Shown: in pieces, positions 19,962 to 28,428 of the stretch | How the letters are laid out: each line of letters starts with the position of its first letter | Numbering within the stretch: position 1 is the first letter of the stretch | Source of the DNA: Polyangiales bacterium | GTDB lineage: Bacteria; Myxococcota_A; Polyangia; Polyangiales; Polyangiaceae | NCBI GenBank assembly: GCA_038231275.1 | Contig: JBBRLQ010000002.1 | Location: 128,001 to 192,000, forward strand | Length of the DNA: 64,000 bases | Direction of reading: 5' to 3' | Notes under the pieces: model-generated | Databases searched by the model: none | What the model saw: only the letters and a program-made list of their open reading frames with translations | Told to the model about the DNA's origin: nothing | Program-made: the position numbers and the translations under genes

Positions 19962-21497
19962 ATGCGGCACGCCAAGCTCGCTCTTGCGCTCGCGGTCCTC
20001 TTCGCGCTCGTCGCGTGGGCGTGCGGAGGAGACTCGCCGTCGTCGTCCGTGACCGCGCCCGATGCATCCATTCAGGACGCGTCGGGCGATGGCCCGGTGG
20101 CGCCCGGCACCGACGGCTCCTCGCCCACGGATGGTGGCGCGTCCGATGGATCGCGTGAGAGCAGCGCGCCGGTGACGTCGACCTCGCAGCTGCCCGATCC
20201 CAACGTGACGTTCTTCGCGCTGTCGAAGGCGTTCAAGCCCAACAAGCGCGTCTTTGCACACTACATGCTTTGCTGCGGATCCTTCGGCGTGACCGTCGAC
20301 GACTTCGCGAACGAGGTCACGCTGGCGCAAGCGATGGGCATCGACGGCTTCGCGCTCAACGCGGGCGGGTGGAGCGCTGCAAACTACAAGGCCGACGCCG
20401 CCAACATGTTCGCGGCGGCGAAAACACTGGGCACCGACTTCAAGCTCTTCTTCTCGGCGGACCTGTGCTGCAACCTGCCGGCGGCCGACATCGTCGACAT
20501 GATGACGACGTACGCGGCGCACGCCAACTACCTTCGCGAGGGCACGAAGGCGGTCTTGTCGGCGTGGGCGGGCGGAAGCCACACGGCCGCGAGCGTCGAC
20601 TTCTGGCAGAACCAGGTCATCGGCGCAGCGAAGACGGCGGGCGTCGACGTCTTCTTCATTCCATTTTTCTATCCGGAGCCCGTGTCCGAGGTGCCGGCAC
20701 CCGCGCTCGTGCAGGACAACGTCGCATTCTGGAAGGATCACGTCGACGGGATGTTCTATTTCGGCGCGTCGGGTCTTCCCTTCGGCGATCCGTCGCTCGT
20801 CACGGCGAACGCCGCGTACGCGCAGGCGCTCGCGGCAGCCGGGAAGAAGGCGATGGCGAGCTACAGCGCCGCGTATTGGGGCGCGGTCCAGGGCGATCGT
20901 CGGTACTTCGAGTACCAGGGCGGCCTCGGGACCGAGACGCAATGGAAGGCACTCGTCGCCGCCGATCCCGATTGGGTCGAGATCTCGACGTGGAACGATC
21001 TCAACGAGTCGTACATGATGCCGATGGACGATTTTCAGAAGCACCGCGACTGGGGCATGCCGCTCGGCTTCTACAAACCTCACTACGGCTACGCCGAGCT
21101 CGTTCGGTATTACATACAGTGGTTCAAGACCGGCATCGTCCCGACGCTCACGCGCGACAGCATCTTCTACGCCTACCGCACGCAGCCGAAGAACTTGGTG
21201 CCGACGGCTCAGGACGGCGGCGTCGCGTTCATCGGTGACGTGCAGGACGACATCTACCTCACCATCCCTCTCCTCGCCCCCGCGGAGCTGCGCGTCACGA
21301 CGGGCGGCCAGGTCGTCACCGTTCCCCTCCCCGCCGGGATGAACCAGAAGGCGGTGCCCTTCAACGTCGGCGCGCAGTCGTTCGAGCTATGGCGCGGCGG
21401 CGCGAAGATCAACGGGATCGCCGGCGAGCCTGTCGTGGACAAGGGTGCGCGCTACGATTTCTGGAGCACGACGGGCTTCGTCGAGACCACGCCGTAG
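19962..21497 (+). CDS. Glycoside hydrolase family 71 (endo-alpha-1,3-glucanase) lipoprotein
   Basis: 'VFAHYM', 'AQAMGIDGFALN', 'FKLFFSAD', 'WVEISTWNDLNES', 'YAYRTQPK'; lipobox AWAC. Confidence 0.85.
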   Translation: MRHAKLALALAVLFALVAWACGGDSPSSSVTAPDASIQDASGDGPVAPGTDGSSPTDGGASDGSRESSAPVTSTSQLPDPNVTFFALSKAFKPNKRVFAHYMLCCGSFGVTVDDFANEVTLAQAMGIDGFALNAGGWSAANYKADAANMFAAAKTLGTDFKLFFSADLCCNLPAADIVDMMTTYAAHANYLREGTKAVLSAWAGGSHTAASVDFWQNQVIGAAKTAGVDVFFIPFFYPEPVSEVPAPALVQDNVAFWKDHVDGMFYFGASGLPFGDPSLVTANAAYAQALAAAGKKAMASYSAAYWGAVQGDRRYFEYQGGLGTETQWKALVAADPDWVEISTWNDLNESYMMPMDDFQKHRDWGMPLGFYKPHYGYAELVRYYIQWFKTGIVPTLTRDSIFYAYRTQPKNLVPTAQDGGVAFIGDVQDDIYLTIPLLAPAELRVTTGGQVVTVPLPAGMNQKAVPFNVGAQSFELWRGGAKINGIAGEPVVDKGARYDFWSTTGFVETTP

Positions 21498-22396: not shown

Positions 22397-23392
22397 TCAC
22401 CCCGCCGTCGGGCACCCGCCGCCGCACGTCTTCACGCCGTAGCAGTCCGACGTGCAGCTCGGGCCGCCACACTCGCAGTCCTGCTTGCAGACTTGATCGG
22501 CGAGCGCAGGATCCGAACCGCAGGAGACCTCGCACTGCGAGTAGACGCTGGGAATGACGGCGTGGTGGATGCAGCAGACGGTGCCGGCGGGACAATCGGC
22601 GGTCTCGTCGCACTTGAGGGAGACGTTGACCGGCTTGAGCGTGCAGCCGTCGCCGGAGGGAGAGCACGCTCCGTTGCAGCACTGCTCCGCCTGCGCGGCG
22701 CACGGGCCAGACGGCGGGCAGTCGATCCCGGCGGTGAAAGGGCCACAAGGGCCCGCGTCGACGCGTGTGGTCGTCGCGTCACCGTCCGATGCGCCGTCGC
22801 GTCCGCCGACGTCGGCGCGGGCGTCCGTCAGCGAACCGGGAGGCGGAGGGGTCGGAGTCCCCGGCGGCGGCGCGAGGTTCGAGCACGCCGGGTCGACGCA
22901 CGCCGCCGAGACGCAGCCGCCCGCGAGGCACGTGTACTCGGGCTCGCATCGCACGCCGGCACAGTCCTGCCGGAGCTCGATGGGGAGGAGGAGCGGCGTG
23001 TGCGCGACGAAGCGAAGACGACGGCGGGCGACGACGCACCCCGCGAGGCTGGCGCCAGGCGTGCGAACGGCGCACGCTTCCCGCCCGAGGCCCGCCACGA
23101 TCTCGATCGCGATCTCGGCGCCGCGATCGCCGCTCGGCACGACGACGAGATCGCCGATTTCGCGCGGCGAAGACGGAGCACACGTCGCGGCGGTCGCCCC
23201 CGGCGCACCTTCGAGCGAGGCAAAATCAGGCCCGATCGTGATCGTGGTGGTGCCCGGCTCCTTGGACGCGGCGATCGGTGGACAGCTCGCGAGATCCGTC
23301 GTGAGGACGAGTCGGATCTCCGTCGGATCCCGGCAGCTCGCGACGATCGCGATCGCCCCGAGGAGGGGAAACAGGACCGCCCCTCGCACCAT
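22397..23392 (-). CDS. Cys-rich lipoprotein (myxobacterial 'CRDPTEI' type)
   Basis: MVRGAVLFPLLGAIAIVASC lipobox; 'CVVARRRLRFVAHTPLLLPIEL'; Cys-rich tail; starts 35 nt after the RT stop. Confidence 0.78.
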   Translation of the reverse strand: MVRGAVLFPLLGAIAIVASCRDPTEIRLVLTTDLASCPPIAASKEPGTTTITIGPDFASLEGAPGATAATCAPSSPREIGDLVVVPSGDRGAEIAIEIVAGLGREACAVRTPGASLAGCVVARRRLRFVAHTPLLLPIELRQDCAGVRCEPEYTCLAGGCVSAACVDPACSNLAPPPGTPTPPPPGSLTDARADVGGRDGASDGDATTTRVDAGPCGPFTAGIDCPPSGPCAAQAEQCCNGACSPSGDGCTLKPVNVSLKCDETADCPAGTVCCIHHAVIPSVYSQCEVSCGSDPALADQVCKQDCECGGPSCTSDCYGVKTCGGGCPTAG

Positions 23393-23427
23393 CTGCACTA
23401 CGATACATGGGAGACGCTGGGAGTGCG

Positions 23428-24774
23428 TTACCCCCACCGAATCGTCTCCAACATCCGCATCAGCCGTTCGCCGCGCGCCGGGTCGGATGCCGCGACCCAC
23501 GCGACGAGGCCGCGGAGGTGCCCGCGGAAGTCTTCGTGCCCGCCGCGGTTCTGCGTCGCCGGGCCGAGGCGAGCGCAGTTGTAGAGCGTCGCTTTGAGGC
23601 GGTCCACGGCTTCGCGGGAGACTCGCGGGCGCTCGTTCACGACGAGGCCAGTGACGGTCTGCCGGCCGCCGGCGGGCATGATGCGCGTCTTGCGATGGTT
23701 CACGACGAAGCCCTCTTCGAACACGATCGCGCCGACGCGCGCAGCGAATCGGAGCGCACCACGCGCGAAGTCGGCGCTGCCCGAGAAGACGAGATCGTCC
23801 GCGTACCGCGTGTACGCCGCGCCGGCTGCTGCGGCGGCCGCCGACAAGCGAACGTCGAGACCAAACGCCACGAGGTTGGCGAGCGCGGGCGACGTCGGCG
23901 ATCCCTGCGGCAAGTGACGCGCGCGTGCGAGGGCCTCGGCGCGTCGCCACGCGTCGATGTCCGCGCGCGCCGCGTACGGCCCGAGGGCTCCGCGCCGCGC
24001 GATCGCGTCGACCGGCGTGCGGTTGGTGCAGAGGCGCGAGAGGACGAACGCCACCTCCTCTGGATAGCCCGCGGTTCGAAAGACCGCCGCTACGCGTGCC
24101 GCGGTGATCGTGAGGAAGAAGTCCGCCAGATCGATGCGCATCACTACCGCGCGACCCGCATGCGCCGCCGCGTGGGTGCGGGCCGAGCGCCCGCGACGAA
24201 ATCCGTGAACCGCGTCGTGGGGAGGGATGACGTCGAGCACCTCGCGCAAGATGGCGCGCTGGATCGCCTTCATCCGCGGCTTCGGCGCTTCGAGCAAGCG
24301 CACGCCTCCGCTTCCGTCGGCGCGCTTCGAGACCCAGCGGTACCGGTACTGCCGCAGGGCTTCGCGTTCGACGATTCGCTCGAGACCTCGCGCGTCCGCG
24401 AACCATTCGAGCTCGCCGGCGCGGAGTCCCAGCCACGCCGCCACGTCGCCGTGCGTCGTCAGAACCCGAACGTTCCACCGCGGGCTCCTCATCTCGACGT
24501 GCGGCACGAGCCAAGCACGAACCGTCGGCGCCTCACGCCGCCCACACACCTCGATGAGACGCTTGTCGCCGGCGACGAATCGCGTCAGCTCACGGAGCCG
24601 ACCGCGAGGTGAATTCTGGAACTTCGCGAGGACTCGCGCCGCGACCTTCGACACCCAGGGGAGCGACCCGCCGAGGGCGGTCGCAGCGCGCGCCTTCAGT
24701 CCCGCGCGCGTCCACTCCCCTTCGGCGAGAAATGCTGCCGCAAGGGCGCCGGCCACGTTGACGAGCTCGGCCAT
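23428..24774 (-). CDS. Retron-type reverse transcriptase with N-terminal extension
   Basis: 'RLLEAPKPRMKAIQR', 'HGFRRGRS', region X 'HAAAH' (NAxxH variant), 'IDLADFF', 'LPQGSPTSPALAN', catalytic 'YADD', region Y 'VTG'. No group II intron maturase or endonuclease domain is visible. Confidence 0.92.
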   Translation of the reverse strand: MAELVNVAGALAAAFLAEGEWTRAGLKARAATALGGSLPWVSKVAARVLAKFQNSPRGRLRELTRFVAGDKRLIEVCGRREAPTVRAWLVPHVEMRSPRWNVRVLTTHGDVAAWLGLRAGELEWFADARGLERIVEREALRQYRYRWVSKRADGSGGVRLLEAPKPRMKAIQRAILREVLDVIPPHDAVHGFRRGRSARTHAAAHAGRAVVMRIDLADFFLTITAARVAAVFRTAGYPEEVAFVLSRLCTNRTPVDAIARRGALGPYAARADIDAWRRAEALARARHLPQGSPTSPALANLVAFGLDVRLSAAAAAAGAAYTRYADDLVFSGSADFARGALRFAARVGAIVFEEGFVVNHRKTRIMPAGGRQTVTGLVVNERPRVSREAVDRLKATLYNCARLGPATQNRGGHEDFRGHLRGLVAWVAASDPARGERLMRMLETIRWG

Positions 24775-24977
24775 CCTTCGTCAACGTGCGGCGGCGAGGC
24801 CCAACCAGACTTGACTGGCGTGCGGAATCGTACGTTCTGCGTACCGCGCCGCACGCGACGAAATGCGGGTCCAATTGCGTTCCCTCGGGGTAACCCCGAG
24901 GAGGATCCGAGCCGTCCGAGACGGTCCCTTCTCCGACTTGAGCCCCCGCCGCCGCACGACGCGAGACTACACGAAGG
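24775..24977 (-). ncRNA. Putative retron msr-msd ncRNA
   Basis: Perfect 12-bp inverted repeat 24785-24796/24947-24958, extendable to ~20 bp with G:U pairs and one bulged G on the minus-strand RNA. Hairpins at 24912-24924 and 24883-24901 (msr-like) and 24818-24856 (msd-like). Directly upstream of the RT ATG. Confidence 0.78.
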
Positions 24978-24992
24978 CGCCGTCCGCGCGCA

Positions 24993-26546
24993 TCACCCCG
25001 CCTTGTCGCCCTGAAGCTTGCTGTGGTGCCGCCCGTACGTCCCATAGATCACGAAGCCGATCACGAGCCACACGACGAGCCGGATCCACGTGTCCTTCGG
25101 CAGACCGCTCATCACCCACAGGCACGCCACCGCGCCTAGCGGCGCAACGATGTAGAATGCAGGTACCCGGAACGGCCGCACGGCCTTCGGCTGCGTGAAG
25201 CGGAGGATGAAGACGCCCGCGCACACGAGCACGAACGCGAGCAGCGTGCCGATCGACACGAGCTCGCCGACGAGGCTCATCGGAAGGAGACCGCCCGCGA
25301 CGGCGACGAACGCGCCCGTCACGACCGTGGCCTTGTGCGGCGTGCCGAATTTTTTGTGCGCCTGCGAAAACCAAGGGAGAAGGCCGTCTTTGCTCATCGC
25401 ATAGAAGACGCGCGTCTGGCCCATCATCATGACCAGGATGACCGACGTGAGGCCCGACAGCGCACCGAGCTTCACCAGGAACGTGAAGGCCTTCGTCGCG
25501 CCCGGCGACCACTGCCGAAGCTGCACGATGCGATCGATGCCGACCGCGACCGGATCGGACACGCCGAGCTCGTGGTACGGGACGACGCCGGTGAGGACGA
25601 GCGCGACGAGGATGTAGAGGATCGTGCACACGACGAGCGAGCCGAGGATGCCGATCGGCAAATCCCGCGTCGGATTTTTGCATTCCTGCGCCGTCGTCGA
25701 GACCGCGTCGAAGCCGATGTACGCGAAGAAGACGACGCCCGCGCCCGTGAGGACGCCGCCCCAGCCGAAGCTCTGGATCGTCTCGCCGGCGCGCGTGCTC
25801 GGCCCGGCCGGAGGCACGAGCGAGGCGAGGCCGGACGCGGTCGCGTCGCCGACCCAGTTGGCGTGATTGACGACGCTCCATCCGAGCAGGATGAAGGTGA
25901 TGACGATGATGACCTTCACCGCGACGATGAGGTTGTTCACGAACGCCGACTCGCGCATGCCGCGGTAGAGGATCGCGGAAACGAGCACCGCGACGAAGCT
26001 GGCCGGGAGGTTCCACATGCCGTGCGTCGTCGTGCCATTCGCCAGCGTCACGACGTCGCCCCATGGCCCCTGCGTGAGGACGAGGAGGGAGTCGGGGAGC
26101 GTGATGCCGAGCGTCTTGTGGAGGAGCGAGATGAGGTAGCCCGACCACGAGACGGAGACGGTCACAGCGCCGAACGCGTACTCGAGGATGAGATCCCAGC
26201 CGATGATCCAGGCGATGATCTCGCCGAGCGTCGCGTAGGAGTACGCGTAGGCCGAGCCGGCGACCGGGATCATCGCCGCCATCTCCGCGTAGCAGAGGCC
26301 GGCCAGCGCGCAGAGAATGCCGCCGAGGACGAAGCTGTAGACGATGCCAGGGCCCGCGTAATACGCGGCCGCGGTCCCTGTGAGCGAGAAGATGCCAGCG
26401 CCGATAATGGCGCCGATGCCCAGGGCCACCAGGTTGAGGGGGCCGAGGGAGCGCTTGAGCGTGCCGTGCGCCGCGGCCTCGCTGGCGTTCGGATCGTTCG
26501 CTTCGGCGAGCAGCAGAGCGAGCGGCTTCTTCTTGAGGAGGTCCAT
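24993..26546 (-). CDS. APC-family amino acid permease (cationic amino acid transporter-like)
   Basis: 'LGIGAIIGAGIF', 'PVAGSAYAYSY', 'IGWDLILEY', 'FFAYIGFDAVST', 'SIGTLLAF'. Confidence 0.95.
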   Translation of the reverse strand: MDLLKKKPLALLLAEANDPNASEAAAHGTLKRSLGPLNLVALGIGAIIGAGIFSLTGTAAAYYAGPGIVYSFVLGGILCALAGLCYAEMAAMIPVAGSAYAYSYATLGEIIAWIIGWDLILEYAFGAVTVSVSWSGYLISLLHKTLGITLPDSLLVLTQGPWGDVVTLANGTTTHGMWNLPASFVAVLVSAILYRGMRESAFVNNLIVAVKVIIVITFILLGWSVVNHANWVGDATASGLASLVPPAGPSTRAGETIQSFGWGGVLTGAGVVFFAYIGFDAVSTTAQECKNPTRDLPIGILGSLVVCTILYILVALVLTGVVPYHELGVSDPVAVGIDRIVQLRQWSPGATKAFTFLVKLGALSGLTSVILVMMMGQTRVFYAMSKDGLLPWFSQAHKKFGTPHKATVVTGAFVAVAGGLLPMSLVGELVSIGTLLAFVLVCAGVFILRFTQPKAVRPFRVPAFYIVAPLGAVACLWVMSGLPKDTWIRLVVWLVIGFVIYGTYGRHHSKLQGDKAG

Positions 26547-26661
26547 GGGGTGGCGCCAGCCTACCGCGCCCGCGCCCGCGGGTGCTAATGCGCAAGGAGA
26601 CACCGGCGAGACCGTGCCCGACGCCTTGCGGGCGCCCGGATTTCGCTTCATAAGGGGCCGC

Positions 26662-28428
26662 ATGCGTGGGGGGGTCTTCTTTTTCGCTGCGCTCGCGTTC
26701 GCGGGGCTGGCCGGTCTCGCGGACTGCGTCCCGTCGGACCCGAGCGCGGCGGACGACGCGGCAGCCTCTTCGCAGGATGGCGGCCCCGGCAACGGCGACT
26801 CCGCAGCCCGCGAGGACGCCGCGAGCGACGACGCGACGACGCGACCCGACGGCGACGTCGGAAACGAGGCCGGTGCGAACGACGCTCGCGACGACGCGAC
26901 CCCGGCACGCGACGCCGGCTGCGACGCGCAGGTCCCGACCGACGGCGGGCTCGCGCCGCTCTGCGCCGTCCCCATTCCGCAGCCCACCGGCGGCGACGTG
27001 ATCGACGTCGCCGCGGCCGTGCGCCTCGGCAAGGCGATCTTCTGGGACGTGCAGACGGGCGGCGACGGCAAGCAAGCGTGCGCGTCGTGCCACTTCTCCG
27101 CCGGCGTCGACACGCGCCGACTGAATACGATTCACCCCGGCCCCAACGGCACGTTCGAGAGCGACGGCGTGACCGGCGCGGGGCAGACCGCGACGATCGC
27201 GAACATCGGCAACGACGACCGCGTCGGCGCGCAAGGCGTGATGGCGGCGACGTTCAACGCGATCGCGGGCGACCCCGCCACCGGCACGGACGACTGCACG
27301 CCCGCGCCGGCCGCGCCGTTCGGCACGAACCGCCAGGTGACGCCGCGCAACGCGCCGACCGTCATCGGCGCCGTCTTCTACCGCGATCTGTTCTGGGACG
27401 GCCGCGCGAGCCACGCCTTCAACGGCGTCGATCCATTCGGCGCCACGGGCAACGCGGCCGGGAGCCTCGCGAACGTAGGCGCCGCGGCGCTCGCGTCGCA
27501 AGCGGTCGGGCCGCCGAACAATCCCGTCGAAATGTCGTGCGCCGGTCGGAGCTTCAACGGACCGGGCAGCCTCGCGACGAAGATGCTCGCGCGCCAGCCG
27601 CTCCACTCCCAGAAAGTGAGTCCGAACGACGGCGTGCTGGGCGTCCTGTCGGCGTCGCCGGGAGACGGCCTCGCGTGCAACGGCAGCGCGTGCACCTACC
27701 GGGATCTCGTGGTCGCGGCCTTCGGCGCTTCGCTCGGCGCGCAAGCCGAAGCGCAGTTCTCACGGTTGTGGGGCCAGGCGCTCCTCGCGTACGAAGCGAC
27801 CCTCGTCCCCGACGACACGCCGTTCGATCGCTACCTCGCGGGGAGCGGGTCCGCGCTGACGGCGTCGCAGGTCCAGGGATTGTCGCTCTTCACCGGCAAG
27901 GGCCAGTGCGTTGCGTGCCACGCGGGGCCGGAGCTCAGCGATGCGACGTGGAGCTTCGCGACGCGCAAGGGCCTCGTGAACGAGGACACCGGCGATCAAG
28001 GTTTCCACAACACCGGCGTGCGCCCGGGCGGTCGCTTCCCCGAAGACCTGGGCCGCGCCGACGTAGGGCCCAAAGGCGTCACCTACTCCGTGAGCGCCGC
28101 GCAAGTCGATCGCGGCGCGTTCAAGACGCCGTCGCTCCGCAACGTGAAGCTCACCGCGCCGTATTTCCACAACGGCGGCAAAGCGACCCTCGACGATGTG
28201 CTCGCGTTCTATGCGCGCGGCGGCGACTTCAACAATCCCTCCTCGCGTGTCCGCGCGATCGTCTTCCTGGCGGGCGAGCAGGCGGCGCTCGTGGACTTCC
28301 TGGCGAACGCGCTCACCGACTGCCGCGTCGAGAAGGAGCGGGCGCCGTTCGATCACCCATCGCTCGACGTTCCCAACGGCCCGAGCCTCCCGGCGGTCGG
28401 CGCCGCGGGCGTCGGATCGTGCCCGTAG
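26662..28428 (+). CDS. Diheme cytochrome c peroxidase/MauG-family protein
   Basis: 'LGKAIFWD...ACASCH', 'RNAPTVI...FWDGRA', 'CVACH', 'FKTPSLRNVKLTAPYFHNG'. Confidence 0.9.
   Translation: MRGGVFFFAALAFAGLAGLADCVPSDPSAADDAAASSQDGGPGNGDSAAREDAASDDATTRPDGDVGNEAGANDARDDATPARDAGCDAQVPTDGGLAPLCAVPIPQPTGGDVIDVAAAVRLGKAIFWDVQTGGDGKQACASCHFSAGVDTRRLNTIHPGPNGTFESDGVTGAGQTATIANIGNDDRVGAQGVMAATFNAIAGDPATGTDDCTPAPAAPFGTNRQVTPRNAPTVIGAVFYRDLFWDGRASHAFNGVDPFGATGNAAGSLANVGAAALASQAVGPPNNPVEMSCAGRSFNGPGSLATKMLARQPLHSQKVSPNDGVLGVLSASPGDGLACNGSACTYRDLVVAAFGASLGAQAEAQFSRLWGQALLAYEATLVPDDTPFDRYLAGSGSALTASQVQGLSLFTGKGQCVACHAGPELSDATWSFATRKGLVNEDTGDQGFHNTGVRPGGRFPEDLGRADVGPKGVTYSVSAAQVDRGAFKTPSLRNVKLTAPYFHNGGKATLDDVLAFYARGGDFNNPSSRVRAIVFLAGEQAALVDFLANALTDCRVEKERAPFDHPSLDVPNGPSLPAVGAAGVGSCP

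Follow-up and report, generated by a model that had tools for sequence, protein, structure and literature searches.

Does a reverse transcriptase (RT) gene of a myxobacterium, with the 218 nt that separate it from an upstream permease gene, make up an intact retron, and if so, of which kind? The question arises in a 64,000-nt stretch of a Polyangiales genome (assembly GCA_038231275.1, contig JBBRLQ010000002.1, positions 128,001–192,000 of the forward strand; the window hereafter means this whole stretch, and all coordinates are its own), where an earlier note, made from the letters alone, had proposed an RT preceded by a foldable retron non-coding RNA (ncRNA) with its msr and msd parts. We put at roughly 0.87 the probability that 23428–24969 on the minus strand is an intact two-part retron cassette, RNA and RT, of the effector-less lineage of RT clade 11. 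The earlier note called the retron probably uncatalogued, which holds for this locus and fails for the lineage, already to be found as clade 11 in the available text of PMC7736814, as RT_other and RT_outgroup in PADLOC, and in the accessible parts of PMC13712802. The locus is a new example and not a new kind, and it leaves existing knowledge of retrons unchanged; it is a well-defined myxobacterial example of its retron lineage, and it allows base-level predictions of the promoter box, the a1/a2 arms, the branching G, the RT-binding hairpin and the msd template (Table 1).

The reverse transcriptase and its lineage

The reading frame is open over all 448 codons, and the RT motifs that the earlier note had picked out, VTG and HAAAH among them, were all found where it had placed them (RIDLADFF, HLPQGSPTSP, RYADDLVF, QTVTGLVVN at residues 372–380, and RTHAAAHAGR). 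Across 39 aligned family proteins the invariant residues are H205, D215, P289-Q290-G291, Y324, D326, D327 and G376, the last belonging to the VTG in RT7 that characterises retron region Y (here QTVTGLVVN), and every one of them is present in this protein, the catalytic residues being intact.

Retron RT profiles accounted for all 25 of the PADLOC matches listed (the best 25 of 57), led by RT_other (515 bits, 5.9e-155) and RT_outgroup (492 bits, 5.3e-148, labelled retron), both essentially full-length and both spanning the first 130 residues of the RT, with RT_XIII as the next profile (314 bits, residues 97–445). The same ranking was obtained for six relatives from the Actinomycetota (Asanoa), Pseudomonadota (Sedimenticolaceae), Bacteroidota (Flavobacteriaceae), Planctomycetota (Planctomycetaceae) and Labilithrix. 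Pfam returned RVT_1 alone (1.6e-18, residues 155–366). Fourteen of fifteen sequence matches to solved structures were retron RTs, Ec86 leading (1.3e-31), and an AlphaFold model built from 39 relatives (pLDDT 93.1, pTM 0.85) found only retron RTs in its top 17 Foldseek matches against the PDB (Ec86, E 2.2e-21, TM 0.81 on the target), the group II intron, DRT2, DGR and DRT9 RTs ranking after these. Judged by these comparisons of sequence and predicted fold, the RT belongs to the retron lineage and not to the group II intron, DGR, Abi, DRT or UG lineages; a grouping with non-retron classes, which the earlier note had named as the outcome that would undo its proposal, appears in neither the PADLOC, the PDB sequence nor the Foldseek matches.

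Retron RTs have been sorted into 11 clades, of which clade 11 comprises stand-alone (msr-msd)-RT cassettes with two or three RNA structures and is described as "essentially restricted to Actinobacteria" (Mestre 2020, PMC7736814, in the text available). The relatives that we fetched, together with the accessible part of Toro 2026 (PMC13712802), show clade 11 to be spread much wider than the Actinobacteria; in that part the clade 11 RNA models are named OutgroupA and OutgroupB and no recurrent accessory module is found, and a clade11-A member from Archangium (Myxococcota) is listed in the supplement (Toro 2026, PMC13712802). Owing to these names, PADLOC RT_outgroup most probably denotes Mestre clade 11, and the assignment of our RT to clade 11 is one by RT profiles and profile names. 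The available passages of the Khan 2024 census hold no result for clade 11. Set against the two clade 11 profiles (PADLOC PDLC03740 RT_outgroup and PDLC02949 RT_other), the RT is matched over its full length, N-terminal extension included, and the cassette likewise has no conserved accessory gene and a canonical msr-msd RNA directly upstream; what differs is the sediment-metagenome myxobacterial host, the distance to the nearest protein found (76% identical, among 8000 candidates scored, 4515 of which joined the RT family at E 0.001 or better) and the HAAAH of region X.

The best-matching solved system, Retron-Eco1 (Ec86; 7v9x, 7v9u), has a like RT fold at 24–26% identity, but its RT is of ~320 aa and has no N-terminal domain, whereas the RT described here is of 448 aa and has one, and Ec86 acts with an adjacent effector (7v9x title), whereas none is found at this locus. 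Retron-Eco5 (Ec107), from the stand-alone branch of RT clade 2, is likewise an effector-less two-part cassette (Mestre 2020, PMC7736814, in the text available), but falls into another RT clade (185 bits for RT_Ec107-like with our RT), with a shorter RT (a 307-position profile) and no N-terminal extension.

The classical myxobacterial retrons Mx162 and Mx65, which are of type XIII (RT clade 10, with HEAT/ARM-repeat and SWIM accessory genes), share the host phylum with our cassette, and type XIII was considered as an identity for it and rejected. RT_XIII is the third-ranked profile, 200 bits below the best, and leaves the N-terminal domain uncovered; Pfam scans of the neighbours gave neither HEAT/ARM nor SWIM families; and the RNA model described below finds nothing at the 25 loci of the phylum whose RTs are of other retron types (L009–L033). 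With this RT as query, the cassette's own genome (9.3 Mb, 94% complete) holds one retron-type RT at E 1e-5 or better and no type XIII-like copy turned up in it; type XIII-like RTs match the same query at ~1e-50 in other genomes of the phylum. The link that the earlier note drew to the classic myxobacterial producers of multicopy single-stranded DNA (msDNA) is a loose one, given 314 bits for RT_XIII against 515 for RT_other and a same-genus genome with no match to this RT.

The N-terminal extension consists of five helices at residues 2–78 followed by a linker, is kept (residues 1–100) in family relatives, and reached pLDDT 89.3 when modelled on its own. Going by sequence profiles and alignment, it is specific to this RT clade; it has no Pfam family, and no Foldseek match in the PDB at E 0.001 or better. 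Two leads from wider searches were discarded: the best VIA-align match (Z 5.5, to the helical part of a deubiquitylase) lies within the background for helical bundles, and the best value of an ESM Atlas feature search (0.80) is reached by shuffled or reversed proteins a third of the time.

The upstream RNA and its covariation

The perfect 12-bp inverted repeat that the earlier note saw flanking the gap was confirmed as the core of longer arms (24785–24799 and 24944–24958, 15 nt, 93% complementary). When the 218-nt gap was shuffled 1000 times with its dinucleotides kept, 4 of the shuffles contained a perfect inverted repeat of at least 12 nt whose arms lay 80 nt or more from each other. On the minus strand the minimum-energy fold (−112.8 kcal/mol, z −3.0) was equalled in none of 200 shuffles, and it contains all that the earlier note had described: an outer stem that passes one unpaired G (24943, the other three of the G-run 24943–24946 in a1 being paired) and continues into CUCAA/UUGGG, two short hairpins, and a longer interrupted hairpin. 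A fold of similar quality was obtained for the plus strand (z −4.1), so the strand is not set by energy alone. The RNA begins 34 nt past the permease stop codon with a single unpaired base, U 24959, ahead of a1, and a2 stops 10 nt short of the RT start codon. The same logic underlies the RNA of Ec86, with its a1/a2 stem, its G following a1, its msr hairpins and its msd stem-loop.

To the window were added, as DNA, 3 genome loci (from a search of genome contigs with the single protein), 30 loci from a 301-genome sample of the phylum and 80 loci from metagenome contigs, which were searched with an alignment as query. Seventy-seven loci had 250 nt or more of upstream DNA, and in 47 of them a stem search found an inverted repeat of at least 11 bp that spans 145–185 nt and ends no more than 40 nt from the RT start; the sequences of its arms vary from locus to locus. 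Forty-three of these 47 loci were aligned with the window using MAFFT, giving 44 sequences (L054, L065, L079 and L083 were dropped as near-duplicates). RNAalifold found 26 pairs in this alignment, 19 with compensatory changes, and in an extended structure of 36 pairs 93.6% of the cells were paired, compared with 37–49% when the partners were slid by 1–3 columns. Changes on both sides were counted at 26 pairs and in 206 cells, and none of 500 shuffles reached any of five measures. The stems do covary among relatives, as the earlier note had expected of a retron RNA.

In the a1/a2 helix, 13 of 15 pairs have changes on both sides, as have 6 of 8 and 5 of 5 in the two stems of the msd hairpin. The second msr hairpin is instead fixed at its core, GGGG/CCCC being invariant in 44 of 44 sequences, with closing pairs that covary (C-G in 22 and U-A in 20 at one position) and a U·G at one pair in 38 of the 44. 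As such fixed-position U·G pairs would be A·C on the other strand, the RNA is placed on the RT-coding strand, where the earlier note had put it. The segment of hairpin 1 is too variable to align, yet 78 of 80 family RNAs form one hairpin there (median 11 bp).

A covariance model (R1, 178 positions) was made from the 44-sequence alignment. It matches the window at 24784–24959 on the minus strand over positions 1–178 of 178 (128.8 bits, E 4e-23), whilst the best partial match on the plus strand scores 20.9 bits and nothing else in the 64 kb exceeds 21 bits; in the whole 9.3-Mb genome it matches once. Of 89 sources, 80 have a match with E 1e-8 or better, in every case on the RT strand and directly upstream of the RT, many of them at loci that the stem search had missed; in relatives the median distance from the end of the match to the RT start codon is 5 nt. 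Five of the nine remaining sources have too little upstream DNA (L040, L045, L053, L099 and L100), and a sixth, L075, has a protein match that begins only with query residue 102 and a doubtful choice of start codon; the other three are taken up below. The RT profiles, the matches to solved RTs and this covarying, strictly linked RNA together support an intact retron in which the RT is preceded by its msr-msd RNA.

Branch point, promoter and predicted product

In the covariance model alignment the CUCAA-G of the window lies on the family motif CCAA-G, which places G24937 on the conserved G, and of the 79 family RNAs followed by an automatic stem trace, 56 have two facing G's where a1/a2 ends on the inside, these being G24937 and G24805 in the window. 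Such an arrangement of facing G's is highlighted for retron RNAs in the available text of Mestre 2020 (PMC7736814). On these three grounds we propose G24937, opposite G24805, as the likely branching G; the bulged G of the run 24943–24946, to which the earlier note had given this part, is less likely by the alignment with 79 relatives.

In most relatives (L034–L113) an TGCTATCAT-like extended −10 box lies 5–9 nt upstream of the RNA, in several accompanied by a TTGAC(A) −35 box, and the window and L034, its nearest relative in DNA, both have TAGTCTcgcg there. This conservation makes TAGTCT the probable promoter of an msr-msd-RT transcript, and the RNA apparently comes with a promoter of its own, the transcript starting at or near a1. 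A terminator scan gave one chance-level terminator, inside the RT gene. Separately, the 33 nt that lead from the permease stop to the RNA (24960–24992, minus strand) pair among themselves in the minimum-energy fold, giving a hairpin that has no U-tract, overlaps the proposed −10 box and could be due to chance.

If these assignments hold, a promoter just upstream of a1 would give rise to a single RNA comprising msr-msd and the RT gene, and its 176-nt leader would fold with a1 paired to a2. The RT would bind the msr hairpins, chiefly the invariant GGGG-UUA-CCCC hairpin, predicted as its probable recognition site, and the 2'-OH of G24937 would prime synthesis, the msd template plausibly being copied from about 24806 to ~24860–24880 by analogy with known retrons. 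The product would be a branched RNA–DNA molecule with roughly 55–75 nt of DNA and an interrupted 13-bp stem-loop; the plus-strand msd sequence expected as the product (24806–24875) retains this stem in a DNA fold.

By analogy with other retrons, phage sensing or defence would be the likeliest role of the cassette, a suggestion we make tentatively, and in such a role the output might come from the N-terminal domain of the RT or from an unlinked partner. It appears unlikely, though worth stating, that the five-helix domain is a built-in output or sensor module, or else that the cassette serves a cellular function other than defence. Were the domain such an output module, effector-less retrons would be complete single-protein systems, and msDNA would restrain the N-terminal domain until a phage factor disturbed it. 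Experiments on effector-less retrons can build on the 80 covarying RNAs, the invariant GGGG-UUA-CCCC hairpin and the unmatched N-terminal domain, and the family RNAs might serve as compact DNA-producing parts for genome editing.

Table 1. Coordinates of the retron cassette and its two adjoining genes in the window
Feature	Position	Strand	Basis and remarks
Amino-acid permease (AA_permease_2, 2.5e-52)	end 24993	minus	Pfam; directly upstream of the RNA
Candidate −10-like box, TAGTCT	24964–24969	minus	conservation; 4 nt upstream of the RNA match, 5 nt upstream of a1
Retron ncRNA (msr-msd), 176 nt	24784–24959	minus	full-length covariance model match
a1 arm	24938–24958	minus	perfect 12-nt core 24947–24958, G-run 24943–24946, CUCAA 24938–24942
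Proposed branching G	24937	minus	alignment to family motif CCAA-G
msr hairpin 1	24903–24934	minus	window fold; 5-bp tip at 24912–24924
msr hairpin 2, CUCGGGG-UUA-CCCCGAG	24882–24902	minus	fold, alignment; most conserved element
Conserved linker UUUCGUCGCGUG	runs into 5' side of msd hairpin	minus	conserved
msd hairpin (8 bp, 4x4 internal loop, 5 bp)	24818–24856	minus	fold, covariation
G opposing the proposed branching G	24805	minus	fold, model match, stem trace
a2 arm	24785–24804	minus	inverted repeat, fold
Retron RT gene, 448 aa (stop codon included)	23428–24774	minus	translation, profiles, model
RT start codon ATG	first base 24774	minus	translation
RT N-terminal extension, ~100 aa	24475–24774	minus	alignment, PADLOC coverage, structure model
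YADD catalytic motif, residues 324–327	23794–23805	minus	translation, alignment
Cys-rich lipoprotein	22397–23392	minus	directly downstream of the RT gene; no Pfam family

Alternatives and genomic setting

Several observations weigh against an intact clade 11 retron. The NCBIfam retron models match, but stay below their own cut-offs (retron_St85 reaches 176 bits where 235 are required), and an Rfam scan of 23000–26000 at E up to 10 gave five chance-level matches (E 0.7–9), none over 24784–24959; membership in the retrons consequently rests on the PADLOC profiles and on our own covariance model, and the step from RT_outgroup to clade 11 is taken by name. Helix 1 is favoured in the alignment, and its paired fraction inflated, because the rows were picked for a terminal inverted repeat; helices 2–4 were unselected, and the later search with R1 removes the bias. 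Two relatives match the RNA model weakly (L007, 41.8 bits; L006, 30.6 bits), and L010 (G182:C2:582376-586575), a full-length RT relative with 45% identity over residues 9–442, has no RNA model match within 1.5 kb; its RNA may be of the other structural family of the clade, or be missing altogether. A generic sigma-70 scan finds no promoter at the place of TAGTCT. Region X, between RT2 and RT3, reads HAAAH (residues 201–205) and not NAxxH; in the 39 family proteins H205 is invariant, the A mostly kept and the N position occupied by H, Q, F or Y; the H is given as the most conserved residue of the NAxxH motif in the available text of Mestre 2020 (PMC7736814). Finally, the msDNA, the transcript and the phenotype of the cassette are predictions from sequence; a search of public sequencing runs found the locus in no RNA run, and complete in one run of assembled contigs, which may be the source sample.

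The alternative that survives best, though we consider it improbable, accepts the RT and the RNA as a pair and denies that they form a classical retron: the RNA would be a template or scaffold for some other cDNA (unbranched, repetitive or protein-primed, as certain defence-associated RTs make), and its a1/a2 likeness would be architectural. The departure in region X fits such a pair, as do the absence of an effector to complete a tripartite retron and the available literature on this lineage, which in those parts reports no msDNA for any member. A 100-aa N-terminal domain is moreover absent from the solved retron RTs, which are of 305–381 aa except for the 596-aa Ec67 (Eco2), a protein whose NCBIfam family is an RT/endonuclease fusion. 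Against this stand the best profile, sequence and fold matches, all of them to retron RTs with DRT2, DRT9, group II intron and DGR enzymes far lower, and an RNA that has every canonical retron feature in order, down to the facing G's at the end of a1/a2.

Less probable again is a relic, decaying or silent, that was acquired not long ago, is unexpressed and makes no product. The 448 open codons with every invariant family residue, the 128.8 bits of the RNA over the full length of the model, a G+C content like that of the surrounding DNA (69.6% in the window) and a −10-like box in common with the nearest relative, L034, all speak for a maintained element, to be set against its position at a synteny break, the lack of a consensus promoter in the sigma-70 scan and a Shine-Dalgarno-like GAAGGA just 0–1 nt from the annotated ATG. 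A relic would also suit the distribution of the RT, which has no match at 1e-10 or better in the same-genus genome G317 (95% complete) or in three genomes of the family that have the permease gene in common with it. Of the 301 genomes in the phylum sample, 43 give an RT match of some kind at 1e-40 or better, three of these matches spanning the full query length, and the cassette is patchily distributed. Nucleotide homology with the same-genus genome ends at 25006 on the permease side and at 23359 on the lipoprotein side; since the two flanks lie on different contigs of G317, neither an empty site nor a target duplication was definable in this comparison.

That the upstream structure is a permease terminator or a cis-regulatory leader of the RT mRNA, as its start 34 nt after the permease stop and the similarly good fold of the plus strand might suggest, can practically be set aside, as the same RNA stands before the RT in 80 of 89 sources behind unrelated upstream genes, has no U-tract and covaries in a multi-helix retron layout, and the permease orthologue of the same-genus genome goes without the structure, homology ending at 25006.

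The intact retron cassette stands alone, outside any defence island, as no neighbour is conserved, no flank matches a PADLOC defence profile and the neighbours are metabolic. None of 12 flanking ORFs (open reading frames; 16.5–35.8 kb of the window) matched a PADLOC defence profile, and their Pfam families are lactonase, GH71, short-chain dehydrogenase, lysyl oxidase, esterase and amidohydrolase. Among 82 loci compared for shared neighbour gene families, the largest cluster covers 6, which are close relatives of one another.

The Cys-rich lipoprotein downstream of the RT has a signal peptide with a lipobox-like ...VASC, and the same-genus genome contains four paralogue-like matches to it, of up to 64% identity. 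On the other side of the cassette, the stop-to-stop frame of the permease (24993–27131, minus strand) overlaps a di-haem cytochrome c peroxidase gene on the opposite strand (26362–28428, plus strand; CCP_MauG, 5.5e-25) and runs ~700 nt beyond its AA_permease match (residues 223–667 of a 706-aa reading); the long frame is probably a high-GC artefact, with the true start near 26420–26500. Further away, at 19962–21497 on the plus strand, lies the gene of a secreted protein of glycosyl hydrolase family 71 (1.6e-61), whose signal sequence resembles that of a lipoprotein.

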